Below, in pieces: positions 8,862-64,000 of a stretch of 64,000 nucleotides of DNA (its first letter is position 1; each line of letters starts with the position of its first letter). The translations under genes were made by a program, and so were the position numbers. The notes beneath the pieces were generated by a model. It was not told the origin of the DNA and did not search any database. It saw nothing but the letters and a program-made list of their open reading frames with translations. This DNA comes from Heptranchias perlo (lineage: Eukaryota): positions 1 to 64,000 of the forward strand of contig NW_027139821.1 in assembly GCF_035084215.1 (NCBI RefSeq), written 5' to 3'.

Positions 8862-8878
8862 CTGTGAGTAAAGACCCC

Positions 8879-11237: not shown

Positions 11238-11261
11238 TTCACTGAGCTATGATGCCTCTTC

Positions 11262-11652: not shown

Positions 11653-11708
11653 TTTTGCTTTTAAAGTCGATGGTCCCAAAGTTCTTGGGACGAGGAAAAT
11701 GCAACTTT

Positions 11709-36645: not shown

Positions 36646-37170
36646 GAGACATGCGCGCAGAGAGAGGCGCACACAGAGAGAGCGAGGCAGACGCAGAGAG
36701 AGAGAGAGGCGCACACAGAGAGGAAGTGAGGCGCACGCAGAGAGAAAGAGAGGCGCATGCAGAGAGAGAGAGAGGCGCACGCAGAGAAAGAGAGAGAGAG
36801 GCGCACGCAGAGAAAGAGAGAGAGAGGCGCACGCAGAGAAAGAGAGAGAGGCGCACGCAGAGAGAGAAAGAGAGGCGCACGCAGAGAGAAAGAGAGGCGC
36901 ACGCAGAGAGAGAGGCGCACGCAGAGAGAGAGAGAGGCGCACGCAGAGAGAGAGAGAGGCGCACACAGAGAGAAAGAGAGGCACAAAGAGAGAGGCAGGC
37001 AGAGACACACACTCAGAGAGAGAGAGAGAGACACAGAGAGAGAGACACACACTCAGAGAGAGAGAGAGAGGGACACACACACACACAGAGATAAAGATGC
37101 ACAGAGAGACACACACGGAGACGCACACAGACAGAGACACACACAGACAGACAGAGACCCACAGACACAC
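36646..37170. repeat. (GA)n/GGCGCACGCA compound microsatellite
   Basis: Low-complexity repeats abutting the gap. Confidence 0.9.
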
Positions 37171-37197
37171 CCACCCTTGCACTATTTGCACACTTAC

Positions 37198-37233: not shown

Positions 37234-37404
37234 CTACAAGAGACAGAAACAGACAGAACTTCAGTTACAAACAGCTCCTCGATCAGCACAGCCCCTCGCC
37301 GACACAAACTTACTCCAGAAACAGGGGCAATGACCAGATTTCCCTGTGGGCACTCACAGGAGGCTCACTGAGAAACAGGCATTGGACAATATCCTCTCTC
37401 CACC

Positions 37405-37765
37405 CGGTCCCTTCACTCCCCAATCAGGCCCAGTCCCTTCACTCCCCGTACGGGGCCCCGGTCCCTTCACTCCCTGTACGGGGCCCCGGTCCCTTCACTC
37501 CCTGTACGGGGCCCCGGTCCCTTCACTCCCCGTACGGGGCCCCGGTCCCTTCACTCCCCGTACGGGGCCCCGGTCCCTTCACTCCCCGTACGGGGCCCCG
37601 GTCCCTTCACTCCCCGTACGGGGCCCCGGTCCCTTCACTCCCTGTACGGGGCCCCGGTCCCTTCACTCCCCGTACGGGGCCCCGGTCCCTTCACTCCCCG
37701 TACGGGGCCCCGGTCCCTTCACTCCCCGTACGGGGCCCCGGTCCCTTCACTCCCTGTACGGGTCC
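37405..37765. repeat. 28-bp palindrome-containing minisatellite (GTCCCTTCACTCCCCGTACGGGGCCCCG)n
   Basis: ~12 tandem copies in the intron after the TM exon. Confidence 0.93.
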
Positions 37766-37894
37766 CTGTCCATCACTGGACTGTGTCGGAGTTTCCCACA
37801 TGTCTATGGGAAGTCTCTAATGTTCTGCCATTTGTGCTGTAACATTTGAACCTGCTCATCCCCGTGTGGGACAGATCCTGTCCTCATTTCCTAC

Positions 37895-39310: not shown

Positions 39311-39734
39311 TGGGGGAAATCGGGCGGGGGCGGGGCCTGAACACCATCACTGCGAGGGCCTCACACTGTGATTGACAGGCCGGTCGGCCGCCCATGACTT
39401 TGCCTGATTTGGGGAATGGGGCTTTGAAGGTGCTGCTCGTCTCCCGGAGGTGCCTCTCCTGCTGATCAGTGGGAGCGATGAGCCGCAGCCCCGGGGGACT
39501 GACTGTGGATCTACCGGAGTGGGACATGTTACCCTCTCCCAGGAGCTCAGCACATCTGCTCCCTCATCACCCCCTCAACCAATCCCCACCGTGGGGCCAG
39601 CAAGAAACCTCGAGCACAGAGAGAGGCAACTGAGAAACGGAGAGAAGGCTTTAAAGCAGCAATTTGGTGAGAGTGGGAATTCAGTACAGAGGGGGAGGAG
39701 GTGCTCAGGAATTTTAACCGAGGGACAACAGTAA

Positions 39735-41858
39735 AGGAGAAAGAGGGAGGGAACGGAGCACTGGGAGTAAAGAGAAAGAGGGAGGGAACGGAGCACTGGA
39801 AGTAAAGAGAGAGAGGGAGGGAACGGAGCACTGGGAGTAAAGAGAAAGAGGGAGAGAACGGAGCACTGGGAGTAAAGAGAGAGAGGGAGGGAACGGAGCA
39901 CTGGGAGTAAAGAGAAAGAGGGAGAGAACGGAGCACTGGGAGTAAAGAGAGAGAGGGAGGGAACGGAGCACTGGAAGTAAAGAGAGAGAGGGAGGGAACG
40001 GAGCACTGGGAGCAAAGAGAGAGAGGGAGGGAACGGAGCACTGGGAGTAAAGAGAGAGAGGGAGGGAACGGAGCACTGGGAGTAAAGAAAGAGGGAGGGA
40101 ACGGAGCACTGGGAGTAAAGAGAGAGAGGGAGGGAACGGAGCACTGGGAGTAAAGAAAGAGAGGGAGGGAACGGAGCACTGGGAGTAAAGAGAGAGAGGG
40201 AGGGAACGGAGCACTGGGAGTAAAGAGAGAGAGGGAGGGAACGGAGCACTGGGAGTAAAGAGAAAGAGGGAGGGAACGGAGCACTGGGAGTAAAGAGAGA
40301 GAGGGAGGGAACGGAGCACTGGGAGTAAAGAGAGAGAGGGGGGAACGGAGCACTGGGAGTAAAGAGAGAGAGGGAGGGAACGGAGCACTGGGAGTAAAGA
40401 GAGAGAGGGAGGGAACGGAGCACTGGGAGTAAAGAGAGGGAGGGAACGGAGCACTGGGAGGAAAGAGAGAGAGGGAGGGAACGGAGCACTGGGAGTAAAG
40501 AGAGAGAGGGAGGGAACGGAGCACTGGGAGTAAAGAGAAAGAGGGAGGGAACGGAGCACTGGGAGTAAAGAGAGAGAGGGAGGGAACGGAGCACTGGAAG
40601 TAAAGAGAGAGAGGGAGGGAACGTAGCACTGGGAGTAAAGAAAGAGAGGGGGGGAACGGAGCACTGGGAGTAAAGAGAGAGAGGGAGGGAACGGAGCAAT
40701 GGGAGTAAAGAGAGAGAGGGAGGGAACGGAGCACTGGGAGTAAAGAAAGAGAGGGAGGGAACGGAGCACTGGGAGTAAAGAGAGAGAGGGAGGGAACGGA
40801 GCACTGGGAGTAAAGAGAGAGAGGGAGGGAACGGAGCACTGGGAGTAAAGAGAGAGAGGGAGGGAACGGAGCACTGGGAGTAAAGAGAGAGAGGGAGGGA
40901 ACGGAGCACTGGGAGTAAAGAGAGAGAGGGAGGGAACGGAGCACTGGGAGTAAAGAGAGAGAGGGAGGGAACGGAGCACTGGGAGTAAAGAGAGAGAGGG
41001 AGGGAACGGAGCACTGGGAGTAAAGAGAGAGGGAGGGAACGGAGCACTGGGAGTAAAGAGAGAGAGGGAGGGAACGGAGCACTGGGAGTAAAGAGAGAGA
41101 GGGAGGGAACGGAGCACTGGGAGTAAAGAGAGAGAGGGAGGGAACGGAGCACTGGGAGTAAAGAGAGAGAGGGAGGGAACGGAGCAATGGGAGTAAAGAG
41201 AGAGAGGGAGGGAACGGAGCACTGGGAGTAAAGAGAGAGAGGGAGGGAACGGAGCACTGGGAGTAAAGAGAGAGAGGGAGGGAACGGAGCACTGGGAGTA
41301 AAGAGAGAGAGGGAGGGAACGGAGCACTGGGAGTAAAGAGAGAGAGGGAGGGAACGGAGCACTGGGAGTAAAGAGAGAGAGGGAGGGAACGGAGCACTGG
41401 GAGTAAAGAGAGAGAGGGAGGGAACGGAGCACTGGGAGTAAAGAGAGAGAGGGAGGGAACGGAGCACTGGGAGTAAAGAGAGAGAGGGAGGGAACGGAGC
41501 ACTGGGAGTAAAGAGAGAGAGGGGGGGAACGGAGCACTGGGAGTAAAGAGAGAGAGGGAGGGAACGGAGCACTGGGAGTAAAGAGAAAGAGGGAGGGAAC
41601 GGAGCACTGGGAGTAAAGAGAGAGAGGGAGGGAACGGAGCACTGGGAGTAAAGAGAAAGAGGGAGGGAACGGAGCACTGGGAGTAAAGAGAGAGAGGGAG
41701 GGAACGGAGCACTGGGAGTAAAGAGAGAGAGGGAGGGAACGGAGCACTGGGAGTAAAGAGAGAGAGGGAGGGAACGGAGCACTGGGAGTAAAGAGAGAGA
41801 GGGAGGGAACGGAGCACTGGGAGTAAAGAGAGAGAGGGGGGGAGAGGGGGGGGAACGG
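39735..41858. repeat. 35-bp purine-rich minisatellite (GAGTAAAGAGAGAGAGGGAGGGAACGGAGCACTGG)n, ~60 copies
   Basis: Highly homogeneous tandem array in the alpha3-TM intron. Confidence 0.96.
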
Positions 41859-42570: not shown

Positions 42571-42623
42571 CATCTTTAATCCTCAGCCTCAGACTCTCCC
42601 CCTGCACTCACTGATCCTCTTAC

Positions 42624-42899
42624 CCCAGTCTCGGGTCTCCACTCCTGCTTTGCTGCTGTGATCCACCTGACAGGAGTAGGTGGCTCCGTCCTCGGGCCCG
42701 ATCTCAACCCATCTCTTGATCTGGTAGGTGCCATCGTGGTTGGGCAGGATGCCAGTGGAATCAGTGTCTGAGATCGGCCGTCCATTTCTCAGGAGGGTGA
42801 GTTCGATATCTCGAGGGTAAAACCCCGTGACCAGGCAGGAGAGTTGGGCCGGTTTAGTGTCTGAGGCCTTGTCCACAGAAAGAAACACTTGGGGAGTAA
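42624..42899 (-). CDS. UAA: MHC class I alpha3 (Ig C1-set) exon
   Basis: Acceptor ttttactctcAG|TT, donor TGGG|GTAAGA, 276 nt. Translates VTPQVFLSVDK..LSCLVTGFYPRDI..GILPNHDGTYQ..YSCQVDHSS..RDW; in frame with alpha2. Confidence 0.95.
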
Positions 42900-42938
42900 C
42901 TGAGAGTAAAACAGATCAGAGCCGAGTCAGTGTGAGAC

Positions 42939-43335
42939 AGGGAACGGTACAAACCCCTTTAAACTGGGGATTAGACCCCAGGGAACGGGACAAACCCCTT
43001 TAAACTGGGGATTAGACCCCAGGGAACGGGACAAACCCCTTTAAACTGGGGATTAGACCCCAGGGAACGGTACAAACCCCTTTAAACTGGGGATTAGACC
43101 CCAGGGAACGGGACAAACCCCTTTAAACTGGGGATTAGACCCCAGGGAACGGTACAAACCCCTTTAAACTGGGGATTAGACCCCAGGGAACGGTACAAAC
43201 ACCTTTAAACTGGGGATTAGACCCCAGGGAACGGGACAAACCCCTTTAAACTGGGGATTAGACCCCAGGGAACGGGACAAACCCCTTTAAACTGGGGATT
43301 AGACCCCACGGAACGGGACAAACCCCTTTAAACTG
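42939..43335. repeat. 41-bp minisatellite (AGGGAACGGGACAAACCCCTTTAAACTGGGGATTAGACCCC)n
   Basis: ~10 copies starting ~40 nt from the alpha3 acceptor; a remnant unit continues at 44468-44495. Confidence 0.93.
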
Positions 43336-44467
43336 TGTGCGGCTGCATCAAGCTGTGCATAGACCCTCAGTACGCAAACACAAAGTGTCACTACGTGCTG
43401 AGGTTCTACCTGTCCCCGGTGTTGAGAAGGATGGGCCTGGCCACGCTGCCACGGAACGCTCCGTCCAGTTGGACCGTTCCGCCCCACCTGTCCTTCGTGG
43501 AAAGGTTTGTGCAGGAAAACACCTTTGACCACAAGGCGATCAGCAAGTGGTCCGCACGTAACGTCCTCGAGACCCTGCGGGAAAAGGAGATGGTGGATCC
43601 TGTCGGTTGGTTCCCCGAGCAGACTGTCAATGTCATTTGGCAGAACGCCTCATCACCAGAGCTTTCAAACAAGCACCAAGACCTAGCTTGGCTGGTGGTG
43701 AGAAGGGCCCTTCCCGTCAGATCCTTCATGCACTCCCGGACTCTCAGTGCCACCGCGCGCTGTCCCAGAGGAGGCTGCGGTGGAGACGAGACCGTCACCC
43801 ATCTCCTTCTGGAATGTGCCTTTGCAAAGAAGGTGTGGAGAGAGATGCAGTGGTATCTGTCCAGGTTCATCCCGAGCAGTTCCGTAACACAGGTTTCTGT
43901 GCTCTACGGGCTGTTCCCGGGGACGCACACCGAGACGGACATTGGCTGCTGCTGGAAGACCATCAACTCGGTGAAAGACGCCCTTTGGTCTGCCCGAAAC
44001 TTGCTGGTCTTCCAGCACAAGGAGCTGTCCTCGACCGAGTGTTGCAGACTGGCACATTCCAAGGTCCAGGACTACGTGCTGAGGGACGCACTGAGGATGG
44101 GTGCGGCCGCCGCAAAGGCTCTGTGGGGAAAGGCAACCGTTTAGAGCCTTCCCGCCATTGTAAACCGAGGGGCTGCAATCAGGGAAAAACCCCCTCGGGC
44201 AGAATGTAAAATTCAAATTGCTGTAATGTACCTGTAATGAATCTGTAATGAATCTGTAAGCAATAATCTGTGTTGAGCATGATGCATTGAGGCACCCTAG
44301 AGTGTCATGAACTGTAATTATGTCCAATGTGTTCATTGTACTGCACTTAACGTAACCTGCAAATTGTAAAATCTGTATTGTGTACGTTTGGAAAGTGATA
44401 TCACAACTGTATTGTATGTATTGCTGCAAATTTTATGAATAAAGTATATTTTTTGAAAAAAAAACAA
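43336..44467 (+). mobile_element. L1/Tx1-clade LINE, 5'-truncated, with intact ORF2 C-terminus, poly(A) and TSD
   Basis: zf-RVT-type CCHC motif (ARCPRGGCGGDETVTHLLLECAFAKKVW); AATAAA plus A-tail at ~44438-44467; flanking ACAAACCCCTTTAAACTG at 43318-43335 and 44468-44485. Confidence 0.88.
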
Positions 44468-44492
44468 ACAAACCCCTTTAAACTGGGGATTA

Positions 44493-47400
44493 GACTCTCA
44501 CTCCCCCCCTCACTCACCGACTCTCACTCCCCCCTCACTCACCGACTCTCACTCCCACCCCTCACTCACCGACTCTCAGTGCCCCCTCACTCACCGACTC
44601 TCACTCCCCCCTCACTCACCGACTCTCAGTGCCCCCTCACTCACCGACTCTCAGTCCCTCCCTCAATCACCGACTCTCAGTCCCTCCCTCACTCACCGAC
44701 TCTCACTCCCCCCCTCACTCACCGACTCTCACTCCCCCCCTCACTCACCGACTCTCAGTCCCTCCCTCAATCACCGACTCTCAGTCCCTCCCTCACTCAC
44801 CGACTCTCAGTGCCCCCCTCACTCACCGACTCTCAGTCCCTCCCTCAATCACCGACTCTCAGTCCCTCCCTCACTCACCGACTCTCAGTGCCCCCTCACT
44901 CACCGACTCTCAGTCCCCCCCTCACTCACCGACTCTCAGTCCCTCCCTCAATCACCGACTCTCAGTCCCCCCCCTCACTCACCGACTCTCAGTCCCTCCC
45001 TCAATCACCGACACCCACTCCCCCCTCACTCACCGACTCTCAGTGCCCCCCTCAATCACCGACTCTCAGTCCCCCCCTCACTCACCGACTCTCACTCACC
45101 GACTCTAATTCCCCCCCTCACTCACCGACTCAGTCCCCCCCTCACTCACCGAGTCTCACTCCACCCTCACTCACCGACTCTCACTCCCCCCTCACTCACC
45201 GACTCTCACTCCCCCCCTCACTCACCGACTCTCACTCCCCCCCTCACTCACCGACTCTCAGTTCACGCCTCACTCACCGACTCTCACTCCCCCCCTCACT
45301 CACCGACTCTCACTCCCCCCCTCACTCACTGACTCTCACTCCCCCCCCTCACTCACCGACTCTCACTCCCCCCCTCACTCACCGACTCTCAGTCCCCCCT
45401 CACTCACCGACTCTCAGTGCCCCCCTCACTCACCGACTCTCAGTCCCCCCCTCACTCACCGACACCCACTCCCCCCTCACTCACCGACTCTCACTCCCCC
45501 CTCACTCACCGACTCAGTCCCCCCCTCACTCACCGACTCTCACTCCCCTGCTCACTCACCGACTCTCAGTCCCCCCCTCACTCACTGACTCTCACTCCCC
45601 CGTCACTCACCGACACCCACTCCCCCCTCACTCACCGACTCTCACTCCCCCCCTCACTCACCGACTCTCAGTCCCCCCCTCACTCACTGACTCTCACTCC
45701 CCCCTCACTCACCGACTCTCAGTCCCCCCCCTCAATCACCGACTCTCAGTCCCTCCCTCACTCACCGACTCTCACTCCCCCCCTCACTCACCGACTCTCA
45801 GTCCCTCCCTCACTCACCGACTCTCACTCCCCCCCCTCACTCACCGACTCTCAGTCCCCCCCCCACACTCACCGACTCTCACTCCCCCCTCACTCACCGA
45901 CTCTCAGTCTCCCCCTCACTCACCGACTCTCAGTCCCCCCCTCACTCACCGACTCTCAGTCCCTCCCTCACTCACCGACTCTCACTCCCCCCTCACTCAC
46001 CGACTCTCAGTCCCCCCTCACTCACCGACTCTCAGTCCCCCCCCCCTCACTCACCGACTCTCACTCCCCCCTCACTCACCGACTCTCAGTCCCCCCCCCT
46101 CACTCACGGACTCTCACTCCCCCCTCACTCACCGACTCTCAGTCCCCCCCCCTCACTCACGGACTCTCAGTCCCCCCCTCACTCACCGACTCTCAGTGCC
46201 CCCCTCACTCACCGACTCTCACTCCCCCCTCACTCACCGACTCTCAGTCCCTCCCTCAATCACCGACACTCAGTCCCTCCCTCACTCACCGACTCTCACT
46301 CCCCCCCTCACTCACCGACTCTCAGTCCCCCCCCCTCACTCACCGACTCTCAGTCCCCCCCTCACTCACCGACTCTCAGTGCCCCCCTCACTCACCGACT
46401 CTCACTCCCCCCTCACTCACCGACTCTCAGTCCCTCCCTCAATCACCGACACTCAGTCCCTCCCTCACTCACCGACTCTCACTCCCCCCCCTCACTCACC
46501 GACTCTCAGTCCCCCCCCTCACTCACCGACTCTCAGTCCCTCCCTCAATCACCGACACTCAGTCCCTCCCTCACTCACCGACTCTCACTCCCCCCCCTCA
46601 CTCACCGACTCTCACTCCCCCCCTCACTCACCGACTCTCAGTCCCCCCCTCACTCACCGACTCTCAGTGCCCCCCTCACTCACCGACTCTCACTCCCCCC
46701 TCACTCACCGACTCTCAGTCCCTCCCTCAATCACCGACTCTCAGTCCCTCCCTCACTCACCGACTCTCACTCCCCCCCCTCACTCACCGACTCTCAGTCC
46801 CCCCTCACTCACCGACTCTCACTCCCCCCCTCACTCACCGACTCTCAGTCCCCCCCCTCACTCACCGACACTCAGTTCACCCCTCACTCACCGACTCGCA
46901 CTCCCCCCCTCACTCACCGACTCTCACTCCCCCCCTCACTCACCGACTCTCAGTCCCCCCCCCTCACTCACCGACTCTCACTCCCCCCTCACTCACCGAC
47001 ACCCACTCCCCCCTCACTCACCAACTCTCACTCCACCCTCACTCACCGACTCAGTCCCCCCCTCACTCACCGAATCTCACTCCCCCCCTCACTCACCGAC
47101 ACCCACTCCCCCCTCACTCACCGACTCTCACTCCCCACTCACTCACCGACTCACTCCCCCCCCTCACTCACCGACTCTCAGTCCCCCCCTCACTCACCGA
47201 CTCTCACACCCCCTCAGTCACCGACTCTCACTCCCCCCCCTCACTCACCGACTCTCACTCCCCCCCTCATACACCGACTCTCAGTCCCTCCCTCACTCAC
47301 TGACTCTCACTCCCCCCTCACTCACCGACTCTGAGTCCCCCCTCACTCACTGACTCTCACTCCCCCACCTCACTCACCGACTCTCACTCCCCCCCTCACT

Positions 47401-50400
47401 CACCAACTCTCACTCCCCCCTCACTCACCGACTCTCAGTCCCCCCCTCACTCACCGACTCTCACTCCCCCCCCTCACTCACCGACTCTCACTCCTCCCCT
47501 CACTCACCGACTCTCACTCCCCCCCTCACTCACCGACTCTCACTCCCCCCCTCACTCACCGACTCTCACTCCCCCCCTCACTCACCGACTCTCACTACCC
47601 CCCTCACTCACCGACTCTCAGTCCCCCCTCACTCACCGACTCTCACTCCCCCCCCTCACTCACCGACTCTCAGTCCCCCCCTCACTCACCGACTCTCAGT
47701 CCCCCCCTCACTCACCGACTCTCAGTCCCCCCCTCACTCACCGACTCAGTCCCCCCCTCACTCACCGACTCTCACTCCCCCCTCACTCACCGACTCTCAC
47801 TCCCCCCCTCACTCACCGACTCTCACTCCCCCCCTCACTCACCGACTCTCACTACCCCCTCACTCACCGACTCTCAGTCCCCCCTCACTCACCGACTCTC
47901 AGTCCCCCCTCACTCACCGACTCTCACTCCCCCCTCACTCACCGACTCAGTCCCCCCCTCACTCACCGACTCAGTCCCCCCCCTCACTCACCGACTCTCA
48001 CTCCCCCCTCACTCACCGACTCTCAGTCCCCCCCCTCACTCACCGACTCTCACTCCCCCCCTCACTCACCGACTCTCAGTCCCCCCTCACTCACCGACTC
48101 TCACTCCCCCCTCACTCACCGACTCTCACTCCCCCCCTCACTCACCGACTCTCACTCCCCCCCTCACTCACCGACTCTCACTCCCCCCTCACTCACCGAC
48201 TCTGAGTCCCCCCCTCACCCACCGACTCTCACTCCCCCCTCACTCACCGACACCCACTCCCCCCTCACTCACCGACTCTCAGTCCCCTCCCTCAATCACC
48301 GACTCTCAGTCCCTCCCTCACTCACCGACTCTCACTCCCCCCCTCACTCACCGACACTCAGTTCACCCCTCACTCACCGACTCTCACTCCCCCCCTCACT
48401 CACCGACTCTCACTGCCCCCTCACTCACCGACTCTGAGTCCCCCCCTCACTCACCGACTCTCACTCCCCCCTCACTCACCGACTCTGAGTCCCCCCCTCA
48501 CTCACCGACTCTCACTCCCCCCTCACTCACCGACTCAGTCCCCCCCTCACTCACCGACTCTCACTCCCCCCCTCACTCACCGATTCTCACTCCCCCTTCA
48601 CTCACCGACACCCACTCCCCCCTCACTCCCCGACTCTCACTCCCCCCCTCACTCACCGACTCTCAGTCCCCCCCTCATTCACCGACTCTCACTCCCCCCT
48701 CACTCACCGACTCACAGTCCCCACTCACTCACCGACTCTCAGTGCCCCCCTCAATCACCGACTCTCACTCCCCCCCTCACTCAACCAACTCTCACTCCCC
48801 CCCTCACTCACCGACTCTCAGTCCCTCCCTCACTCACCGACTCTCACTCCCCCCCTCACTCACCGACTCTCACTCCCCCCCTCACTCACCAACTCTCACT
48901 CCCCCCCTCACTCACCGACTCTCAGTCCCCCCCCTCACTCACCGACTCTCACTCCCCCCCTCACTCACCGACTCTCACTCCTCCCCTCACTCACCGAATC
49001 TCAATCCCCCCTCACTCACCGACTCTCACTCCCCCCCTCACTCACCGACTCTCACTCCCCCCCTCACTCACCGACTCTCACTACCCCCTCACTCACCGAC
49101 TCTCAGTCCCCCCTCACTCACCGACTCTCACTCCCCCCCCTCACTCACCGACTCTCAGTCCCCCCTCACTCACCGACTCTCAGTCCCCCCCTCACTCACC
49201 GGCTCTCAGTCCCCCATCACTCACCGACTCTCACTCCCCCCTCACTCACCGACTCTCACTCCCCCCTCACTCACCGACTCTCAGTCCCCCCCTCACTCAC
49301 CGACTCAGTCCCCCCCCTCACTCACCGACTCTCACTCCCCCCTCACTCACCGACTCTCACTCCCCCCCCTCACTCACCGACTCTCACTCCCCCCCTCACT
49401 CACCGACTCTCACTACCCCCCTCACTCACCGACTCTCAGTCCCCCCCTCACTCACCGACTCTCAGTCCCCCCCTCACTCACCGACTCTCACTCCCCCCCT
49501 CACTCACCGACTCAGTCCCCCCCTCACTCACCGACTCAGTCCCCCCCTCACTCACCGACTCTCACTCCCCCCCTCACTCACCGACTCTCAGTCCCCCCCC
49601 TCACTCACCGACTCTCACTCCCCCCCCTCACTCACCGACTCTCAGTCCCCCCTCACTCACCGACTCTCACTCCCCCCTCACTCACCGACTCTCACTCCCC
49701 CCCTCACTCACCGACTCTCACTCCCCCCCCTCACTCACCGACTCTCACTCCCCCCTCACTCACCGACTCTGAGTCCCCCCCTCACCCCACCGACTCTCAC
49801 TCCCCCCCTCACTCACCGACACCCACTCCCCCCTCACTCACCGACTCTCAGTCCCTCCCTCAATCACCGACTCTCAGTCCCTCCCTCACTCACCGACTCT
49901 CACTCCCCCCCTCACTCACCGACACTCAGTTCACACCTCACTCACCGACTCTCACTCCCCCCCTCACTCACCGACTCTCACTGCCCCCCTCACTCACCGA
50001 CTCTGAGTCCCCCCCTCACTCACCGACTCTCACTCCCCCCTCACTCACCGACTCTGAGTCCCCCCCTCACTCACCGACTCTCACTCCCCCCTCACTCACC
50101 GACTCAGTCCCCCCCCTCACTCACCGACTCTCACTCCCCCCCTCACTCACCGATTCTCACTCCCCCTTCACTCACCGACACCCACTCCCCCCTCACTCCC
50201 CGACTCTCACTCCCCCCCTCACTCACCGACTCTCAGTCCCCCCCTCATTCACCGACTCTCACTCCCCCCCTCACTCACCGACTCACAGTCCCCACTCACT
50301 CACCGACTCTCAGTGCCCCCCTCAATCACCGACTCTCACTCCCCCCCTCACTCAACCAACTCTCACTCCCCCCCTCACTCACCGACTCTCAGTCCCTCCC

Positions 50401-53400
50401 TCACTCACCGACTCTCACTCCCCCCCTCACTCACCGACTCTCAGTCCCCCCTCACTCACCGACTCAGTCCCCCCCTCACTCACCGACTCTCACTCCCCCC
50501 CCTCACTCACCGATTCTCACTCCCCCCTCACTAACCGACACCCACTCCCCCCTCACTCCCCGACTCTCACTCCCCCCCTCACTCACCGACTCTCAGTCCC
50601 CCCCTCACTCACCGACTCTCAGTCCCCCCTCACTCACCGACTCTCGGTGCCCCCCTCACTCACCGACTCTCAGTCCCTCCCTCACTCACCGACTCTCACT
50701 CCCCCCCTCACTCACCGACTCTCAGTCACCCCTCACTCACCGACTCTCACTCCCCCCCTCACGCACCGACTCTCAGTTCACCCCTCACTCACCGACTCTC
50801 ACTCCCCCCCTCACTCACCGTCTCTCAGTCCCCCCCTCACTCACCGACTCTCACTCCCCCCCTCACTCACCGACTCTCACTCCCCCCCTCACTCACCGAC
50901 TCTCACTCCCCCCCTCACTCACCGACTCTCAGTTCACCCCTCACTCACCGACTCTCACTCCCCCCCTCACTCACCGACTCTCAGTCCCCCCCCTCACTCA
51001 CCGACTCTCAGTTCACCCCTCACTCACCGACTCTCACTCCCCCCCTCACTCACCGTCTCTCAGTCCCCCCCTCACTCACCGACTCTCACTCCCCCCCTCA
51101 CTCACCGACTCTCACTCCCCCCCTCACTCACCGACTCTCACTACCCCCTCACTCACCGACTCTCAGTCCCCCCTCACTCACCGACTCTCAGTCCCCCCTC
51201 ACTCACCGACTCTCACTCCCCCCTCACTCACCGACTCAGTCCCCCCCCTCACTCACCGACTCAGTCCCCCCCTCACTCACCGACTCTCACTCCCCCCCTC
51301 ACTCACCGACTCTCAGTCCCCCCCCTCACTCACCGACTCTCACTCCCCCCCTCACTCACCGACTCTCAGTCCCCCCTCACTCACCGACTCTCACTCCCCC
51401 CTCACTCACCGACTCTCACTCCCCCCCTCACTCACCGACTCTCACTCCCCCCCTCACTCACCGACTCTCACTCCCCCCTCACTCACCGACTCTGAGTCCC
51501 CCCCTCACCCACCGACTCTCACTCCCCCCTCACTCACCGACACCCACTCCCCCCTCACTCACCGACTCTCAGTCCCTCCCTCAATCACCGACTCTCAGTC
51601 CCTCCCTCACTCACCGACTCTCACTCCCCCCCTCACTCACCGACACTCAGTTCACACCTCACTCACCGACTCTCACTCCCCCCCTCACTCACCGACTCTC
51701 ACTGCCCCCTCACTCACCGACTCTGAGTCCCCCCCTCACTCACCGACTCTCACTCCCCCCTCACTCACCGACTCTGAGTCCCCCCCTCACTCACCGACTC
51801 TCACTCCCCCCTCACTCACCGACTCAGTCCCCCCCTCACTCACCGACTCTCACTCCCCCCCTCACTCACCGATTCTCACTCCCCCTTCACTCACCGACAC
51901 CCACTCCCCCCTCACTCCCCGACTCTCACTCCCCCCCTCACTCACCGACTCTCAGTCCCCCCTCATTCACCGACTCTCACTCCCCCCTCACTCACCGACT
52001 CACAGTCCCCACTCACTCACCGACTCTCAGTGCCCCCCTCAATCACCGACTCTCACTCCCCCCCTCACTCAACCAACTCTCACTCCCCCCCTCACTCACC
52101 GACTCTCAGTCCCTCCCTCACTCACCGACTCTCACTCCCCCCCTCACTCACCGACTCTCAGTCCCCCCTCACTCACCGACTCAGTCCCCCCCTCACTCAC
52201 CGACTCTCACTCCCCCCCTCACTCACCGATTCTCACTCCCCCCTCACTAACCGACACCCACTCCCCCCTCACTCCCCGACTCTCACTCCCCCCCTCACTC
52301 ACCGACTCTCAGTCCCCCCTCACTCACCGACTCTCAGTCCCCCCTCACTCACCGACTCTCGGTGCCCCCCTCACTCACCGACTCTCAGTCCCTCCCTCAC
52401 TCACCGACTCTCACTCCCCCCCTCACTCACCGACTCTCAGTCACCCCTCACTCACCGACTCTCACTCCCCCCCTCACGCACCGACTCTCAGTTCACCCCT
52501 CACTCACCGACTCTCACTCCCCCCCTCACTCACCGTCTCTCAGTCCCCCCCTCACTCACCGACTCTCACTCCCCCCCTCACTCACCGACTCTCACTCCCC
52601 CCCTCACTCACCGACTCTCACTCCCCCCCTCACTCACCGACTCTCAGTTCACCCCTCACTCACCGACTCTCACTCCCCCCTCACTCACCGACTCTCAGTC
52701 CCCCCCCTCACTCACCGACTCTCAGTTCACCCCTCACTCACCGACTCTCACTCCCCCCCTCACTCACCGTCTCTCAGTCCCCCCCTCACTCACCGACTCT
52801 CACTCCCCCCCTCACTCACCGACTCTCACTCCCCCCCTCACTCACCGACTCTCACTCCCCCCCTCACTCACCGACTCTCAGTTCACCCCTCACTCACCGA
52901 CTCTCACTCCCCCCTCACTCACCGACTCTCAGTCCCCCCCCTCACTCACCGACTCTCCGTCCCCCCCTCACTCACCGACTCTCACTCCCCCCTCACTCAC
53001 CGACACCCACTCGCCCCTCACTCACCGACACTCACTCCCCCCCCTCACTCACCGACTCTCACTCCCCTCCTCACTCACCGACTCTCAGTCCCCCCCTCAC
53101 TCACCGACTCTCACTCCCCCCCTCATACACCGACTCTCAGTCCCTCCCTCACTCACTGACTCTCACTCCCCCCTCACTCACCGACTCTCAGTGCCCCCCT
53201 CAATCACCGACTCTCAGTCCCTCCCTCACTCACCGACTCTCACTCCCCCCCCTCACTCACCGACTCTCACTCCCCCCCTCACTCACCGACTCTCAGACCC
53301 TCCCTCACTCACCGACTCTCATTCCCCCCTCACGCACCGACTCTCACTCCCCCCTCACTCACCGACTCTCTGTCCCCCGCCCCTTACTCACCGACTCTCA

Positions 53401-56400
53401 CTCCCCCCTCACTCACCGACTCTCAGTCCCCCCCTCACTCACCGACTCTCAGTCCCTCCCTCACTCACCGACTCTCACTCCCCCCCTCACTCACCGACTC
53501 TCAGTCCCCCCTCACTCACCGACTCTCACTCCCCCCTCACTCACCGACTCTCAGTTCACCCCTCACTCACCGACTCTCAGTCCCCCCCTCACTCACCGAC
53601 TCTCACTCCCCCCTCACTCACCGACACCCACTCCCCCCTCACTCACCGACTCTCACTCCCCCCTCACTCACCGACTCAGTCCCCCCCTCACTCACCGAAT
53701 CTCACTCCCCCCCTCACTCACCGACTCTCACTCCCCCCTCACTCACCGACACCCACTCCCCCCTCACTCACCGACTCTCACTCCCCCCTCACTCACCGAC
53801 TCAGTCCCCCCCTCACTCACCGACACTCACTCCCCCCTCACTCACCGACACCCACTCCCCCCTCACTCAGCGACTCTCACTCCCCCCCTCATACACCGAC
53901 TCTCAGTCCCTCCCTCACTCACTGACTCTCACTCCCCCCTCACTCACCGTCTCTCACTCCCCCCTCACTCAACGACTCTCAGTCCCCCTCTCACTCACCG
54001 ACTCTCACTCCCCCGCTCACTCACCGACTCTCAGTCCCCCCTCACTCACCGACTCTCACTCCCCCCCCTCACTCACCGACTCTCAGTTCACCCCTCACTC
54101 ACCGACTCTCACTCCCCCCCTCACTCACCGACTCTCACTCACCGACTCTCAGTCCCCCCCTCACTCACCGACTCAGTCCCCCCCTCACTCACTGACTCTC
54201 ACTCCCCCCCTCACTCACCGACTCTCAGTCCCCCCCTCAATCACCGACTCTCAGTCCCTCCCTCACTCACCGACTCTCACTCCCCCCCTCACTCACCGAC
54301 TCTCAGTCCCTCCCTCACTCACCGACTCTGACTCCCCCCCTCACTCACCGACTCTCAGTCCCCCCCCCTCACTCACCGACTCTCACTCCCCCCTCACTCA
54401 CCGACTCTCAGTCTCCCCCTCACTCACCGACTCTCAGTGCCCCCCTCAATCACCGACTCTCACTCCCCCCCTCACTCACCGACTCTCAGTCCCCCCCTCA
54501 CTCACCGACTCTCAGTCCCCCCTCACTCACCGTCTCTCACTCCCCCCTCACTCACCGACTCTCAGTGCCCCCCTCAATCACCGACTCTCAGTCCCTCCCT
54601 CACTCACCGACTCTCACTCCCCCCCTCACTCACCGACTCTCAGTCCCCCCTCACTCACCGACTCTCACTCCCCCCCTCACTCACCGACTCTCAGTGCCCC
54701 CCTCAATCACCGACTCTCAGTCCCTCCCTCACTCACCGACTCTCACTCCCCCCCTCACTCACCGACTCTCAGTCCCCCCTCACTCACCGACTCTCACTCC
54801 CCCCCTCACTCACCGACACTCAGTTCACCCCTCACTCACCGACTCTCACTCCCCCCCTCACTCACCGACTCTCACTCCCGCCTCACTCACCGACTCTCAG
54901 TCCCCCCCCCCTCACTCACCGACTCTCAGTCCCCCCCTCACTCACCGACTCTCACTCCCCCCTCACTCACCGACACCCACTCCCCCCTCACTCACCGACA
55001 CTCACTCCTCCCTCACTCACCGACTCAGTCCCCCCCTCACTCACCGAATCTCACACCCCCCTCACTCACCGACACCCACTCCCCCCCCTCACTCACCGAC
55101 TCTCACTCCCCCCTCACTCACCGACACCCACTCCCCCCCTCACTCACCGACACTCACTCCCCCCTCACTCACCGACTCTCAGTCCCCCCCTCACTCACCG
55201 ACTCTCACTCCCCCCCTCACTCACCGACTCTCACTCCTCCCCTCAATCACCGACTCTCAGTCCCCCCCTCACTCACCGACTCTCACTCCCCCCCTCACTC
55301 ACCGACTCTCACTCCCCCCTCACTCACCGACTCTCAGTCCCCCCCTCACTCACCGACTCTCACTCCCCCCCCTCACTCACCGACTCTCACTCCCCCCTCA
55401 CTCACCGACTCTCAGTCCCCCCCTCACTCACCGACTCTCACTCCCCCCCTCACTCACCGACTCTCACTCCTCCCCTCAATCACCGACTCTCAGTCCCTCC
55501 CTCACTCACCGACTCTCACTCCCCCCCCTCACTCACCGACACTCAGTTCACCCCTCACTCACCGACTCTCACTCCCCCCCTCACTCACCGACTCTCACTG
55601 CCCCCTCACTCACCGACTCTGAGTCCCCCCCTCACTCACCGACTCTCACTCCCCCCTCACTCACCGACTCTGAGTCCCCCCCCTCACTCACCGACTCTCA
55701 CTCCCCCCCTCACTCACCGACTCAGTCCCCCCCTCACTCACCGACTCTCACTCCCCCCCTCACTCACCGATTCTCACTCCCCCTTCACTCACCGACACCC
55801 ACTCCCCCCTCACTCCCCGACTCTCACTCCCCCCCTCACTCACCGACTCTCAGTCCCCCCTCATTCACCGACTCTCACTCCCCCCTCACTCACCGACTCT
55901 CAGTCCCCACTCACTCACCGACTCTCAGTGCCCCCCTCAATCACCGACTCTCACTCCCCCCCTCACTCACCGACTCTCACTCCCCCCCTCACTCACCGAC
56001 TCTCAGTCCCTCCCTCACTCACCGACTCTCACTCCCCCCCTCACTCACCGACTCTCAGTCCCCCCTCACTCACCGACTCTCAGTCCCCCCTCACTCACCG
56101 ACTCTCAGTGCCCCCCTCAATCACCGACTCTCAGTCCCTCCCTCACTCACCGACTCTCACTCCCCCCCTCACTCACCGACTCTCAGTTCCTCCCTCACTC
56201 ACCGACTCTCACTCCCCCCCTCACTCACCGACTCTCAGTCCCCCCTCACGCACCGACTCCCACTCCCCCCCTCACTCACCGTCTCTCAGTCCCCCCCTCA
56301 CTCACCGACTCTCACTCCCCCCCTCACTCACCGACTCTCACTCCCCCCCTCACTCACCGACTCTCACTCCCCGACTCTCAGTTCACCCCTCACTCACCGA

Positions 56401-59400
56401 GTCTCACTCCCCCCTCACTCACCGACTCTCAGTCCCCCCCCTCACTCACCGACTCTCCGTCCCCCCCTCACTCACCGACTCTCACTCCCCCCTCACTCAC
56501 CGACACCCACTCGCCCCTCACTCACCGACACTCACTCCCCCCCTCACTCACCGACTCTCACTCCCCTCCTCACTCACCGACTCTCAGTCCCCCCCTCACT
56601 CACCGACTCTCACTCCCCCCCTCATACACCGACTCTCAGTCCCTCCCTCACTCACTGACTCTCACTCCCCCCTCACTCACCGACTCTCAGTGCCCCCCTC
56701 AATCACCGACTCTCAGTCCCTCCCTCACTCACCGACTCTCACTCCCCCCCTCACTCACCGACTCTCACTCCCCCCCTCACTCACCGACTCTCAGACCCTC
56801 CCTCACTCACCGACTCTCATTCCCCCCCTCACTCACCGACTCTCACTCCCCCCTCACTCACCGACTCTCTGTCCCCCGCCCCTCACTCACCGACTCTCAC
56901 TCCCCCCTCACTCACCGACTCTCAGTCCCCCCCTCACTAACCGACTCTCAGTGCCCCCCTCAATCACCGACTCTCAGTCCCTCCCTCACTCACCGACTCT
57001 CACTCCCCCCTCACTCACCGACTCTCAGTTCACCCCTCACTCACCGACTCTCAGTCCCCCCCTCACTCACCGACTCTCACTCCCCCCTCACTCACCGACA
57101 CCCACTCCCCCCTCACTCACCGACTCTCACTCCCCCCTCACTCACCGACTCAGTCCCCCCCTCACTCACCGAATCTCACTCCCCCCCTCACTCACCGACT
57201 CTCACTCCCCCCTCACTCACCGACACCCACTCCCCCCTCACTCACCGACTCTCACTCCCCCCTCACTCACCGACTCAGTCCCCCCCTCACTCACCGACAC
57301 TCACTCCCCCCTCACTCACCGACTCTCACTCCCCCCTCACTCACCGACTCAGTCCCCCCCTCACTCACCGACACTCACTCCCCCCTCACTCACCGACACT
57401 CACTCCCCCCTCACTCAGCGACTCTCACTCCCCCCCTCATACACCGACTCTCAGTCCCTCCCTCACTCACTGACTCTCACTCCCCCCTCACTCACCGTCT
57501 CTCACTCCCCCCTCACTCAACGACTCTCAGTCCCCCTCTCACTCACCGACTCTCACTCCCCCGCTCACTCACCGACTCTCAGTCCCCCCTCACTCACCGA
57601 CTCTCACTCCCCCCCTCACTCACCGACTCTCAGTTCACCCCTCACTCACCGACTCTCACTCCCCCCCTCACTCACCGACTCTCACTCACCGACTCTCAGT
57701 CCCCCCCTCACTCACCGACTCAGTCCCCCCCTCACTCACTGACTCTCACTCCCCCCTCACTCACCGACTCTCAGTCCCCCCCTCAATCACCGACTCTCAG
57801 TCCCTCCCTCACTCACCGACTCTCACTCCCCCCCTCACTCACCGACTCTCAGTCCCTCCCTCACTCACCGACTCTGACTCCCCCCCTCACTCACCGACTC
57901 TCAGTCCCCCCCCCCTCACTCACCGACTCTCACTCCCCCCTCACTCACCGACTCTCAGTCTCCCCCTCACTCACCGACTCTCACTCCCCCCCTCACTCAC
58001 CGACTCTCAGTCCCCCCCTCAATCACCGACTCTCAGTCTCCCCCTCACTCACCGACTCTCAGTCCCCCCCTCACTCACCGACTCTCAGTCCCCCCTCACT
58101 CACCGACTCTCACTCCCCCCCTCACTCACCGTCTCTCACTCCCCCCTCACTCACCGACTCTCAGTGCCCCCCTCAATCACCGACTCTCAGTCCCTCCCTC
58201 ACTCACCGACTCTCACTCCCCCCCTCACTCACCGTCTCTCACTCCCCCCTCACTCACCGACTCTCAGTGCCCCCCTCAATCACCGACTCTCAGTGCCCCC
58301 CTCACTCACCGACTCTCACTCCCCCCCTCACTCACCGACTCTCAGTCCCCCCTCACTCACCGACTCTCACTCCCCCCTCACTCACCGACTCTCAGTCCCC
58401 CCCTCACTCACCGACTCTCAGTCCCCCCTCACTCACCGACTCTCACTCCCCCCTCACTCACCGACTCTCACTCCCCCCCTCACTCACCGACACTCAGTTC
58501 ACCCCTCACTCACCGACTCTCACTCCCCCCCTCACTCACCGACTCTCACTCCCCCCCTCACTCACCGACTCTCACTCCCCCCCCTCACTCACCGACTCTC
58601 ACTCCCCCCTCACTCACCGTCTCTCAGTCCCCCCTCACTCACCGACACTCACTCCACCCCCTCACTCACCGTCTCTCACTCCACCCCCTCACTCACCGTC
58701 TCTCAGTCCCCCCCTCTCTCACCGACTCTCACTCCCCCCTCACTCACCGACTCTCACTCCCCCCTCACTCACCGACTCTCAGTCCCCCCTCACTCACCGA
58801 CTCTCACTCCCCCCCTCACTCACCGACTCTCACTCCCCCCTCACTCACCGACTCTCACTCCCCCCTCACTCACCGACTCTCAGTCCCCCCCTCACTCACC
58901 GACTCTCACTCCCCCCCTCACTCACCGACTCTCACTCACCGACTCTCACTCCCCCCTCACTCACCGACTCTCAGTCCCCCCCTCACTCACTGACTCTCAC
59001 TCCCCCCCCACTCACCGACTCTCACTCCCCCCCTCACTCACCGACTCTCACTCCCCCCCTCACTCACCGACTCTCACTCCCCCCCCTCACTCACCGACTC
59101 TCACTCCCCCCCTCACTCACCGTCTCTCAGTCCCCCCTCACTCACCGACACTCACTCCACCCCCTCACTCACCGTCTCTCACTCCACCCCCTCACTCACC
59201 GTCTCTCACTCCACCCCCTCACTCACCGACTCTCACTCCCCCCCCTCACTCACCGACTCTCAGTCCCCCCCTCACTCACCGACTCTCAGTCTCCCCCTCA
59301 CTCACCGACTCTCACTCCCCCCCTCACTCACCGACTCTCAGTCCCCCCCTCAATCACCGACTCTCAGTCTCCCCCTCACTCACCGACTCTCAGTCCCCCC

Positions 59401-62400
59401 CTCACTCACCGACTCTCAGTCCCCCCTCACTCACCGACTCTCACTCCCCCCCTCACTCACCGTCTCTCACTCCCCCCTCACTCACCGACTCTCAGTGCCC
59501 CCCTCAATCACCGACTCTCAGTCCCTCCCTCACTCACCGACTCTCACTCCCCCCCTCACTCACCGACTCTCAGTCCCCCCCTCACTCACCGACTCTCAGT
59601 GCCCCCCTCAATCACCGACTCTCAATCCCTCCCTCACTCACCGACTCTCACTCCCCCCTCACTCACCGACTCTCACTCCCCCCCTCACTCACCGACACTC
59701 AGTTCACCCCTCACTCACCGACTCTCACTCCCCCCCTCACTCACCGACTCTCACTCCCCCCCTCACTCACCGACTCTCACTCCCCCCCTCACTCACCGAC
59801 TCTCACTCCCCCCTCACTCACCGTCTCTCAGTCCCCCCTCACTCACCGACACTCACTCCACCCCCTCACTCACCGTCTCTCACTCCACCCCCTCACTCAC
59901 CGTCTCTCAGTTCCCCCCCTCACTCACCGACTCTCACTCCCCCCCTCACTCACCGACTCTCACTCCCCCCTCACTCACCGACTCTCACTCCCCCCTCACT
60001 CACCGACTCTCAGTCCCCCCCTCACTCACCGACTCTCACTCCCCCCCCTCACTCACCGACTCTCACTCACCGACTCTCACTCCCCCCTCACTCACCGACT
60101 CTCAGTCCCCCCCTCACTCACTGACTCTCACTCCCCCCCCACTCACCGACTCTCACTCCCCCCCTCACTCACCGACTCTCACTCCCCCCCTCACTCACCG
60201 ACTCTCACTCCCCCCCTCACTCACCGACTCTCACTCCCCCCTCACTCACCGTCTCTCAGTCCCCCCTCACTCACCGACACTCACTCCACCCCCTCACTCA
60301 CCGTCTCTCACTCCACCCCCTCACTCACCGTCTCTCACTCCACCCTCACTCACCGACTCTCACTCCCCCCTCACTCACCGACTCTCACTCCCCCCCCTCA
60401 CTCACCGACTCTCAGTCCCCCCCTCACTCACCGACTCTCACTCCCCCCCTCACTCACCGACTCTCACTCCCCCCTCACTCACCGACTCTCAGTCCCCCCC
60501 TCACTCACCGACTCTCAGTCCCCCCTCACTCACCGTCTCTCACTCCACCCCCTCACTCACCGTCTCTCAGTCCCCCCCTCACTCACCGACTCTCACTCCC
60601 CCCCCTCACTCACCGACTCTCAGTCCCCCCCTCACTCACCGACTCTCAGTCCCCCCCTCACTCACCGACTCTCACTCCCCCCTCACTCACCGACTCTCAG
60701 TCCCCCCCTCACTCACCGACTCTCAGTCCCCCCCGTCACTCACCGACTCTCACTCCCCCCTCACTCACCGACTCTCACTCCCCCCCCTCACTCACCGACT
60801 CTCACTCCCCCCCCACTCACCGACTCTCACTCCCCCCCTCACTCACCGACTCTCACTCCCCCCCTCACTCACTGATTCTCACTCCCCCCCCACTCACCGA
60901 CTCTCACTCCCCCCCTCACTCACCGACTCTCACTCCCCCCCTCACTCACCGACTCTCACTCCCCCCCTCACTCACCGACTCTCACTCCCCCCCCACTCAC
61001 CGACTCTCACTCCCCCCCTCACTCACCGACTCTCACTCCCCCCCTCACTCACCGACTCTCACTCCCCCCCTCACTCACCGACTCTCACTCCCCCCCTCAC
61101 TCACCGACTCTCACTCCCCCCCTCACTCACCGACTCTCACTCCCCCCTCACTCACCGACTCTCAGTTCCCCCCTCACTCACCGACTCTCACTCCCCCCCT
61201 CACTCACCGACTCTCACTCCCCCCCTCACTCACCGACTCTCACTCCCCCCCTCACTCACCGACACTCACTCCACCCCCTCACTCACCGTCTCTCAGTCCC
61301 CCCCTCACTCACCGACTCTCACTCCCCCCCTCACTCACCGACTCTCACTCCCCCCCTCACTCACCGACTCTCACTCCCCCCCTCACTCACCGACGTTCAC
61401 TCCCCCCTCACTCACCGACTCTCACTCCCCCCTCACTCACCGACTCTCAGTCCCCCCCTCACTCACCGACTCTCAGTCCCCCCTCACTCACCGACTCTCA
61501 GTCCCCCCCTCACTCACTGACTCTCACTCCCCCCTCACTCACCGACTCTCACTCCCCCCTCACTCACCGACTCTCACTCCCCCCCTCACTCATCGACTCT
61601 CACTCCCCCCCTCACTCACTGATTCTCAGTCCCCCCTCACTCACTGACTCTCACTCCCCCCCCACTCACCGACTCTCACTCCCCCCCTCACTCACCGACT
61701 CTCACTCCCCCCCTCACTCACCGACTCTCACTCCCCCCCTCACTCACCGACTCTCACTCCCCCCTCACTCACCGTCTCTCAGTCCCCCCTCACTCACCGA
61801 CACTCACTCCACCCCCTCACTCACCGTCTCTCAGTCCCCCCCTCACTCACCGACTCTCACTCCCCCCCTCACTCACCGACTCTCACTCTCCCCCTCACTC
61901 ACCGACTCAGTCCCCCCCTCACTCACCGACTCTCAGTCCCCCCCTCACTCACCGACTCTCAGTCCCCCCCTCACTCACCGACTCTCACTCCCCCCTCACT
62001 CACCGACTCTCAGTCCCCCCCTCACTCACCGACTCTCAGTCCCCCCTCACTCACCGACTCTCACTCCCCCCCCACTCACCGACTCTCACTCCCCCCCTCA
62101 CTCATCGACTCTCACTCCCCCCCTCACTGATCGACTCTCACTCCCCCCTCACTCACCGACTCTCGCTCCCCCCCTCACTCATCGACTCTCACTCCCCCCC
62201 TCACTGATCGACTCTCACTCCCCCCTCACTCACCGACTCTCAGTCCCCCCTCACTCACCGACTCTCACTCCGCCCCCTCACTCACCGACTCTCTCTCCCC
62301 CCCTCACTCACCGACTCTCACTCCCCCCTCACTCACCGACACCCACTCCCCCCTCACTCACCGACTCTCACTCCCCCCTCACTCACCGACTCTCAGTCCC

Positions 62401-62592
62401 CCCCTCACTCACCGACTCTCAGTCCCCCCCTCACTCACCGACTCTCAGTCCCCCCTCACTCACCGACTCTCAGTCCCCCCCTCACTCACTGACTCTCACT
62501 CCCCCCCCACTCACCGACTCTCACTCCCCCCCTCACTCATCGACTCTCACTCCCCCCCTCACTCATCGACTCTCACTCCCATCCTCACTCAC
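44493..62592. repeat. ~18 kb ~26-bp satellite (CTCACTCACCGACTCTCA[C/G]TCCCCCC)n filling the alpha2-alpha3 intron
   Basis: Continuous tandem array of roughly 700 units with variable C-run; runs up to the alpha2 donor. Confidence 0.98.
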
Positions 62593-62865
62593 CGGCCCTC
62601 AGTTCCCTCTTTCCGTAGTCGAGGTATTTCCTCAGCCACTCGATGCACTCCTCCTCCAGGTATCCCTTCCACCGCTGGTTCCAGGCCCTGTCCTGGTCCC
62701 ACTTGTTCTTGGTGATCTCTCCCCACTGTACCGGTGTTACCCACACCATGTGTTCCAGATCGAAGCTGATGAAATCCTTCCCGTCCCAGCTGTCCTGATA
62801 GAACCCTCTCGTGGTCCCATCATTCCCCAGCTCACAGCCGTACATCACCTGGATCGTGTGGATTC
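62593..62865 (-). CDS. UAA: MHC class I heavy chain, alpha2 exon (classical/UAA-like)
   Basis: Acceptor ttgattgacAG|GAATCCAC, donor GCCG|GTGAGT, 273 nt, phase 1. Translates GIHTIQVMYGCELG..DGKDFISFD..TKNKW..GYLEEECIEWLRKYL, with the C101/C164 pair and anchors T143, K146, W147, Y159, Y171 (HLA-A2 numbering, aligned by eye). Symbol tentative because alpha1 is not in the window. Confidence 0.95.
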
Positions 62866-62974: not shown

Positions 62975-64000
62975 TCGACCCCCAGACCCCGCCTCCGCCC
63001 AGACCCCGACCCCCTGAGCCCACTCCCCCCGGACCCTGACCCACAGAGCCCACACCTCCCGGACCCCGACCCACAGAGCCCGGCCCACCCGGACCCCAAC
63101 CCCCAGAGCCCACACCTCCCGGACCCCGACCCACAGAGCCCGGCCCACCCGGACCACGACCCCCTGAGCCCACTCCCCCCGGACCCCAACCCCCAGAGCC
63201 CACTCCCCCCGGACCCCGGCCCCCAGAGCACACACCTCCCGGACCCTGACCCACAGAGCCCGGCCCACCCGGACCCCGACCCCCAGAACCTGCTCCATCA
63301 GGGCCCCGACCCCCAGAACCCGCACCCCCCTGACACCGACCGCCAGAGCCCACTCCCCCCGGATCCGGACCCCCAGAGCCCGGCCCACCCGGACCCCGAC
63401 CCCCAGAGCCCACTCCCCCTGGATCCGGACCCCCAGAGCCCGGCCCACCCGGACCCCGACCCCCAGAGCCCACTCCCCCCGGATCCCGACCCACAGAGCC
63501 CACTCTCCCCGGATCCCGACCCCCAGAACCCGCTCCGTCAGGACCCCGACCCCCAGAACCCGCTCCCCCCTGACATCGACCCCCAGAGCCCACTCCCCCC
63601 GGATCCCGACCCACAGAGCCCGCTCCCCCCTGACACCGACCGCCAGAGTCCACGCCGCCCGGACCCCAACACTCAGAGCCCACTCCCCCCGGATCCCGAC
63701 CCCCAGAACCCACTCCGCCAGGACCCCGAACCTCAGAGCCCGCTCCCCCCAGACCCCGACACCCAGAGCCCACTCCCCCCAGACCCCGACCCCCAGAACC
63801 CGCTCCGTCAGGACCCCGACCCCCAGAGCCCGCTCCGTCAGGACCCCGACCCCAAAGCCCACTCCCCCCGGATCCCGACCCCCAGAGCCCGCTCCGTCAG
63901 GACCCCGACCCCCAAAGCCCACTCCCCCCAGATCCCGACCCCCACAACCTGCTCCGTCAGGACCCCGATCCCCAGAGTTCGCATCGCCCGGACCCCAACC
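62975..64000. repeat. 30-bp GC-rich minisatellite (GGACCCCGACCCCCAGAGCCCACTCCCCCC)n in the intron upstream of alpha2
   Basis: Tandem periodicity of 30, continuing past the window end. Confidence 0.93.

Follow-up and report, generated by a model that had tools for sequence, protein, structure and literature searches.

The 64,000-nt window analysed here, the whole stretch of Heptranchias perlo DNA under study, carries on its minus strand an intact, spliced MHC class I heavy chain gene of cartilaginous-fish type, with alpha-2, a C1-set alpha-3, a transmembrane segment and a tail in one frame. The alpha-2 exon (62593-62865, 273 nt, phase 1 at both ends) has an open frame, matches Pfam MHC_I (E 6e-28) and finds its best PDB match in 6LUP (E 2e-35); its boundaries are also backed by the loose ends of spliced contigs. 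Its donor is joined across a 19,693-nt intron to the alpha-3 exon (42624-42899, minus strand, 276 nt, Pfam C1-set E 8e-18), which is followed by the transmembrane (38020-37895), cytoplasmic (37233-37198) and last coding (36390-36345) exons, all with an open frame. Joined end to end starting with alpha-2, the five exons encode 252 residues before the first stop is met, and the alpha-1 exon falls outside the 64-kb window. An assembly gap of 209 N (36437-36645) lies in the last coding intron.

Among the best 30 database matches to alpha-2, the closest by identity are shark proteins. Alpha-2 shares 75-81% identity with the Heptranchias perlo class I proteins P0008, P0010 and P0011: 75-79% with P0010 and P0011, with which the alpha-3 and transmembrane exons agree at 100%, and 81% with P0008, the best match, in which alpha-3 is of another type. 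Many exon variants are present among the contigs of the sequencing runs, and a tblastn search found no second alpha-2 copy within the 64-kb window. An exchange of alpha-2 exons between loci could be favoured by the long repeat intron; the records of P0008, P0010 and P0011 are of protein only, without intron sequence. The residues that we take to be the peptide anchors of alpha-2 are present in P0001. A classical (UAA-type) class I locus is recognised by such anchors, by high polymorphism and by linkage to TAP/PSMB genes, and the gene is a candidate for one.

The alpha-2/intron junction is repeated in register over about 18 kb, in the form of a 26-bp minisatellite (44493-62601, minus strand) with units mostly of 25-27 nt. 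Each unit joins 11 nt that resemble the end of the exon to 15 nt that resemble the start of the intron, the latter with a run of six to seven G. In the numbering used here, which was obtained by wraparound alignment, the true donor is unit 0 and is followed by 705 decoys and a partial last unit. The true donor, CCG/GTGAGT (62587-62595, minus strand, +1 at 62592), is in register with all the decoys and matches the unit at 9 of its 11 exonic positions, and the decoys follow at steps of about 26 nt. The motif TCG/GTGAGT is intact in 576 of the 705 decoys. As judged by a crude score, the predicted duplex with the complement of a consensus donor, decoys would be about as strong as the true donor (-10.5 kcal/mol for unit 3 and -10.2 for unit 5, compared with -10.2 for the authentic site). 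With in-register repetition, pseudo-sites of such strength and use of the upstream site, the array belongs to the class of junction-spanning minisatellites known from F7, CBS, IFI6, LMNB2 and PDGFA. Weaker GT sites lie at +5, +17, +31 and +43. About 297 units have a left half that, taken as the end of an exon, would give L-R-V; the same ending is present in 7 of 24 listed proteins of sharks and rays, and the unit may therefore copy an older junction. Long exact internal duplications occur within 44493-62601 at offsets of about 1.3, 1.7, 3.3 and 3.5 kb, and the proximal 750 nt of the array are part of none of the exact duplications of at least 200 nt. A local run of the donor-weakening change +5 G>T is seen in units 684-699 (44900-45060 and 44660-44860), affecting 6 of the last 22 units; this family has 35 copies over the whole array.

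Four of nine listed sequencing runs were compared with the window. In two of them, which are RNA-like, contigs (four in X1, three in X3) part from the genomic sequence at 62593 and run on into the beginning of alpha-3, matched to window sequence that ends at 42899. Splicing across the 19,693-nt intron therefore employs the true donor. Both runs come from one sample, their RNA nature is guessed (neither is recorded as RNA), and they mix several alleles or loci; what they show is use of the true donor, not exclusive use. Cover of the X1 and X3 contigs is zero over 62575-62591, and among the listed loose ends none joins alpha-3 letters to a decoy position. This absence was not counted as evidence, because contigs drop rare forms and RNA bearing a stop may be degraded. 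Reading through the true donor brings a stop codon into frame at +6 to +8, as taken from the sequence. Since the decoys can be reached only via the true donor's own +1 to +8, any decoy product would be truncated. The predicted exon lengths with decoys 1, 2 and 3 are 299, 325 and 351 nt.

The window contains CTCATCGA at 61589, 62101, 62178, 62536 and 62562 and CTGATCGA at 62127 and 62204 (first letters), with no further copies of either in 44400-62620. On the minus strand, CTCATCGA represents a +1 G>A change in units 1, 2, 16, 19 and 39, and CTGATCGA the same change plus +3 G>C in units 15 and 18. The first-pass annotation had described the first two units next to the donor as TCG/ATGAG, and this is what is found in unit 1 (62561-62569, +1 at 62566) and unit 2 (62535-62543, +1 at 62540), which lie 26 and 52 nt from the true donor. 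The further variants that it had placed at 62100-62215 and near 61590 are also there. They correspond to units 15, 16, 18 and 19 (62100-62211, minus strand; +1 at 62208, 62182, 62131 and 62105), which contain a 77-nt duplication and in which the block 18-20 matches units 1-3, and to the isolated unit 39 (61588-61596, minus strand, +1 at 61593), 999 nt from the true donor. Its remark that such variants were missing from the distal array was likewise correct, with no +1 G>A among units 40-705. The broader statement that the decoys nearest the donor have lost their GT is right for units 1 and 2 but not for units 3-14 (62228-62517, minus strand), all of which keep it. Eleven of these twelve are perfect TCG/GTGAGT sites, unit 4 has a -1 G>A change, and the first lies at 62514, 78 nt from the true donor. 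The pattern is thus genuine but smaller than the title of that annotation implied.

Altogether 18 of the 705 decoys are GT-null: 7 of the 39 nearest the exon, 11 of the other 666, and none of the 39 at the far edge. Five of six units scored as truncated were counted as bearing GT, a deletion rejoining them to the next unit. The distal GT-null changes are +1T (two), +1C (two) and +2G (seven). The +1 G>A change lowers the predicted duplex from -10.2 to -3.5 kcal/mol.

The sequence around the variant units is that of a locally copied tract. Units 1-5 are identical to units 93-97 and to units 137-141, save for two +1A bases; units 18-20 equal units 1-3 plus one +3 change, and units 15-16 repeat units 18-19 at 77 nt. 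Eight blocks share the same marker unit, and as +1A is present in two of them (at units 3 and 20) and absent in six, it is derived. A single mutation, spread by block copying, is the best reading of the seven +1A copies. The simplest history would consist of one mutation, one spread to a neighbouring unit and a few short block copies in either direction. Among the 15 families with at least four copies, +1A alone spans fewer than 197 units (38), and the other 14 span at least 197. Sharing of a variant by adjacent units is otherwise seen in 12 of 260 copies. At positions other than that of +1A, substitution families reach at least seven copies per 39 units in 55 of 667 windows.

The enrichment of +1/+2 changes near the exon, which the first-pass annotation had raised, depends on how changes are counted. 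By copy it stands: GT changes are 7 of the 20 changes among the first 39 units but 11 of 247 in the rest of the array, and no GT-null unit is present among the 39 at the far edge. By family it disappears, since 4 of 37 substitution families fall at +1/+2, which are 2 of 19 positions, and one of nine families does so in the first 39 units; counted in this way, GT is struck at the expected rate. Fisher tests gave p 1.9e-5 for GT-null units (7/39 vs 11/666) and p 6e-4 for units 1 and 2 (2/2 vs 16/703), values that are overstated because the copies are not independent, and the pattern was picked after the fact from a single array. Beyond unit 39, none of 665 two-unit windows had both units GT-null and none of 628 windows of 39 units matched the proximal GT-null count, the maximum there being 2. 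Ordinary divergence of the array edge, one of the two explanations that had been offered, does not in its general form fit the pattern. Differences per unit average 0.72 over the 39 units next to the exon and 0.77 over the middle of the array, against 1.03 over the 39 at the far edge. Consensus units are found near the exon (units 5-9), and at the far edge, without a single GT-null unit, the last two are consensus. General edge divergence is absent.

Crude neutral simulations were run with duplication, deletion and point mutation, with unfitted block sizes and without gene conversion. Runs were kept if the consensus was still GT and divergence was 1.2-3.5% (1138 of 1500, 464 of 1500, 464 of 600, 382 of 500 and 55 of 200). 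In the kept runs, unit 1 was null in 2.4-7.3%, units 1 and 2 were both null in 0.2-3.6%, and at least seven of the first 39 units were null in 1.7-9.1%, the top of each range resting on 55 runs. According to these models, drift can make the pattern, though not often, and the likelihood ratio for selection is estimated at about 15-30.

Known systems offer a comparison. Five human genes with a junction-spanning minisatellite, F7, IFI6, CBS, LMNB2 and PDGFA, are described in the available text of Borensztajn et al. 2006 (PMC1557585). According to the same text, F7, LMNB2 and PDGFA use the authentic site only, the two most proximal of the 25 pseudo-sites in intron 2 of IFI6 (6-16) are also used, and CBS uses two pseudo-sites. 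In the F7 minigenes reported there, the most upstream intact site was always chosen and use dropped with distance from the real site; TGG/gtgagt pseudo-sites, 37 nt apart, did not compete even against a weaker authentic site, CAG/gtgagt pseudo-sites did compete, and G triplets were without effect. It cites Yang et al. 2000, a paper whose title states that a substitution in the second repeat of CBS prevents multiple alternate splicing, and Lievers et al. 2001, which also covers the 31-bp VNTR of CBS intron 13. A different rule is reported by Hodson et al. 2012 (PMC3413131): in vitro, with two strong sites, the downstream one gains the upper hand once the two are more than about 30 nt apart, and from 45 nt upward it is the winner. 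The choice of a 5' splice site among identical neighbours is still argued between upstream-first selection (F7, PMC1557585) and the downstream rule in vitro (PMC3413131).

CBS is the nearest parallel, as its repeat also spans the exon/intron junction; the second repeat is reported to be substituted in CBS and the first pseudo-site is destroyed here by +1 G>A (62566). Unlike CBS, with 15-20 units, the shark array has 705, two proximal and five farther units are changed, and the effect on splicing is predicted from sequence. With the 37-bp VNTR of F7 intron 7, as described there, the array shares in-register donor copies, use of the upstream site and G runs in the units. It differs in that the F7 repeat provides 4-8 pseudo-sites, none of them altered and each the same as a real site that is weaker, at a spacing of 37 nt instead of 26 nt. 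The two proximal pseudo-sites reported to be used in IFI6 occupy the very positions that are dead in the shark array. Unlike here, IFI6 tolerates its leak, LMNB2 and PDGFA have none, and all of these arrays are human and under about 25 units. Junction-spanning VNTRs are thus known already, and what is new here is the scale and the taxon. In the literature searched, which consisted of listings with most subscription journals outside their coverage, this intron array has not been reported in sharks. On the two dead units the literature points both ways, IFI6 and CBS speaking for a role and F7 and the in-vitro rule against it.

Exon definition has a soft limit near 300 nt. Exon definition would lead to an upstream-first choice in which any leak is limited to the nearest sites. 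The true donor probably wins by being the first strong one encountered downstream of the acceptor of the exon, a situation like that in F7 intron 7, and by analogy with other such arrays leak would fall on the nearest one or two pseudo-sites. Leaked mRNA would be useless owing to the in-frame stop read from the sequence, and would presumably be removed by NMD. Choice of the upstream site might be helped by the G runs as well, but the G triplets of F7 had no effect, and G runs behave differently in fish. We propose that upstream-first choice silences most decoys, that only the first one or two can leak, that +1A has been kept there, and that the five farther copies are passengers, an explanation to which we give an even chance. 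Of a five-unit block, the copy closest to the exon would have acquired a single +1 G>A, which then passed to the next unit and was copied inward to units 18-19, 15-16 and 39, in this presumed order. Retention of the change at units 1 and 2 would shift the nearest strong competitor from 26 to 78 nt and the exon that it would give from 299 to 351 nt. Selection on units 1 and 2 is plausible; against retention are the facts that probably one mutational event in one array is concerned, that it was noticed after the fact, that by family GT is not over-hit, that other families also reach seven copies or more in 39 units, and that the weaker GT sites at +5, +17, +31 and +43 are still there.

The strongest competitor is a neutral private variant, in which +1 was struck by chance in an exon-proximal unit and spread by slippage or conversion, upstream-first choice leaving it without effect, and in which exon-proximal units are rarely overwritten by long block duplications. 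Under this account, the membership of all seven copies in one family of related blocks and the 4 of 37 families hitting GT are as expected, as is the tolerance of 576 perfect decoys from +78 onward. The 1.7-9.1% of neutral runs with at least seven GT-null units in the first 39 also leave room for it. The use of the authentic site only, with pseudo-sites intact, in F7, LMNB2 and PDGFA fits as well, according to the text available. Intact decoys may indeed be harmless, since the F7 TGG/gtgagt pseudo-sites 37 nt apart failed to compete; and if the in-vitro rule held, by which a downstream strong site wins at 45 nt or more, unit 3 would compete anyway, and losing units 1 and 2 would be of no help. 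The neutral account is less at ease with a variant that occupies precisely the first two units, an outcome of 0.2-3.6% of neutral runs, with a far edge that has no matching cluster and a near edge that has no general excess of divergence, and with the rarity of variant sharing by adjacent units (12 of 260 copies). We rate selection as evenly balanced and drift as somewhat short of that because the simulated likelihood ratio of about 15-30 has to be weighed against a low prior and the after-the-fact choice of the pattern.

A stronger version of retention, in which a short GT-free buffer is maintained by selection to part the donor from some 580 perfect decoys spread over 18 kb, and in which the leak into the stop changes as the first units turn over, seems improbable to us. 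If it were true, repeat variation would set the expression level of a shark MHC class I allele without any coding or promoter change.

Broad selection over the whole exon-definition range, units 15-19 and 39 included, was the other explanation offered in the first-pass annotation, and it is very unlikely. Ten of the first 39 units are changed between -1 and +5, the highest count of all 39-unit windows (one later window has nine), and this would suit it. It is already contradicted by units 3-14, twelve straight decoys from +78 to +359 that all keep GT. Furthermore, five of the seven variant units lie 384-999 nt from the donor, where units 15-39 would give exons of 657-1272 nt, and the variant units look like block copies of one another, units 18-20 matching units 1-3. 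A sequencing or assembly error in a low-complexity array rich in G/C runs, among whose listed contigs none bridges the exon and units 1-2, is scarcely credible, as the same change is met seven times, in blocks duplicated in an orderly way, and two of these copies carry a further, nested change, and as, more weakly, DNA run X6 reads C at 62540 in 9834 of a depth of 9953, the remaining 1% or so, whose letters are not displayed, being similar to 7/705.

The proposed retention at units 1 and 2 bears on a wider question. Here a gene that carries 576 perfect decoys is spliced, an extreme example from nature that agrees with upstream-first choice, and in it units 1 and 2 amount to a two-base experiment. 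If selection is confirmed, the CBS solution would have been repeated in a shark, which suggests a general rule for junction-spanning repeats; if it fails, the variant would reflect ordinary local turnover in a minisatellite.

Other copies of the gene and of the unit were seen in the sequencing runs. One contig of the DNA run X6 represents another class I copy, with 14 differences in 189 letters; its alignment ends at 62568 with three letters left over, and as read from this one contig, whose leftover letters are not displayed, the copy differs from the window at about -1 of unit 1. It could carry a -1 change, or it could lack the array altogether, because the array's far end breaks at the same point of the unit and the collapsed intron would be about 99 nt; it does not separate the two main readings. 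Contigs of a second organism (X9) differ from two units of the array at 2 of 56 letters and mostly have C at 62540, and none of those listed is tied to a class I gene. In X9 the repeat unit (62520-62580) stands at about 10 times the depth of the contigs that cover class I exons; it may therefore be older than this species, or be dispersed. Metagenome contigs gave no match to the intron-start pattern, and a 15-residue match of the protein scan (L001) lies in an unrelated low-GC reading frame and was put down to chance.

The alpha-2 intron also holds a 41-bp minisatellite (42938-43335, 9.7 copies) and the 3' fragment of a non-LTR retrotransposon (43336-44467, plus strand, Pfam zf-RVT E 1e-11) with an A-rich tail. 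The fragment is inserted in a 41-bp unit, adjoins the far end of the 26-bp array and is flanked by an 18-nt direct repeat (43318-43335 and 44468-44485) like a target-site duplication. Once the 26-bp array, the retrotransposon fragment and every 41-bp unit except one are taken out of 42900-62592, about 99 nt of intron remain, and the 19.7-kb intron may therefore have grown about 200-fold by repeats alone. The start of the intron after alpha-3 (42595-42616) resembles a doubly changed decoy (units 15 and 18) over about 10 letters, with further unit-like sequence, a resemblance that may be chance in purine-rich sequence. Each of the four upstream introns seen, from the one before alpha-2 through the cytoplasmic intron, has a minisatellite or microsatellite (62976-63977, 39730-41843, 37403-37766 and 36659-37174), and none of these four arrays overlaps a splice site. 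Four more minisatellites, with units of 38, 30, 28 and 35 bp, lie downstream of the gene in 1-12681, the first of them extending over at least 8.6 kb.
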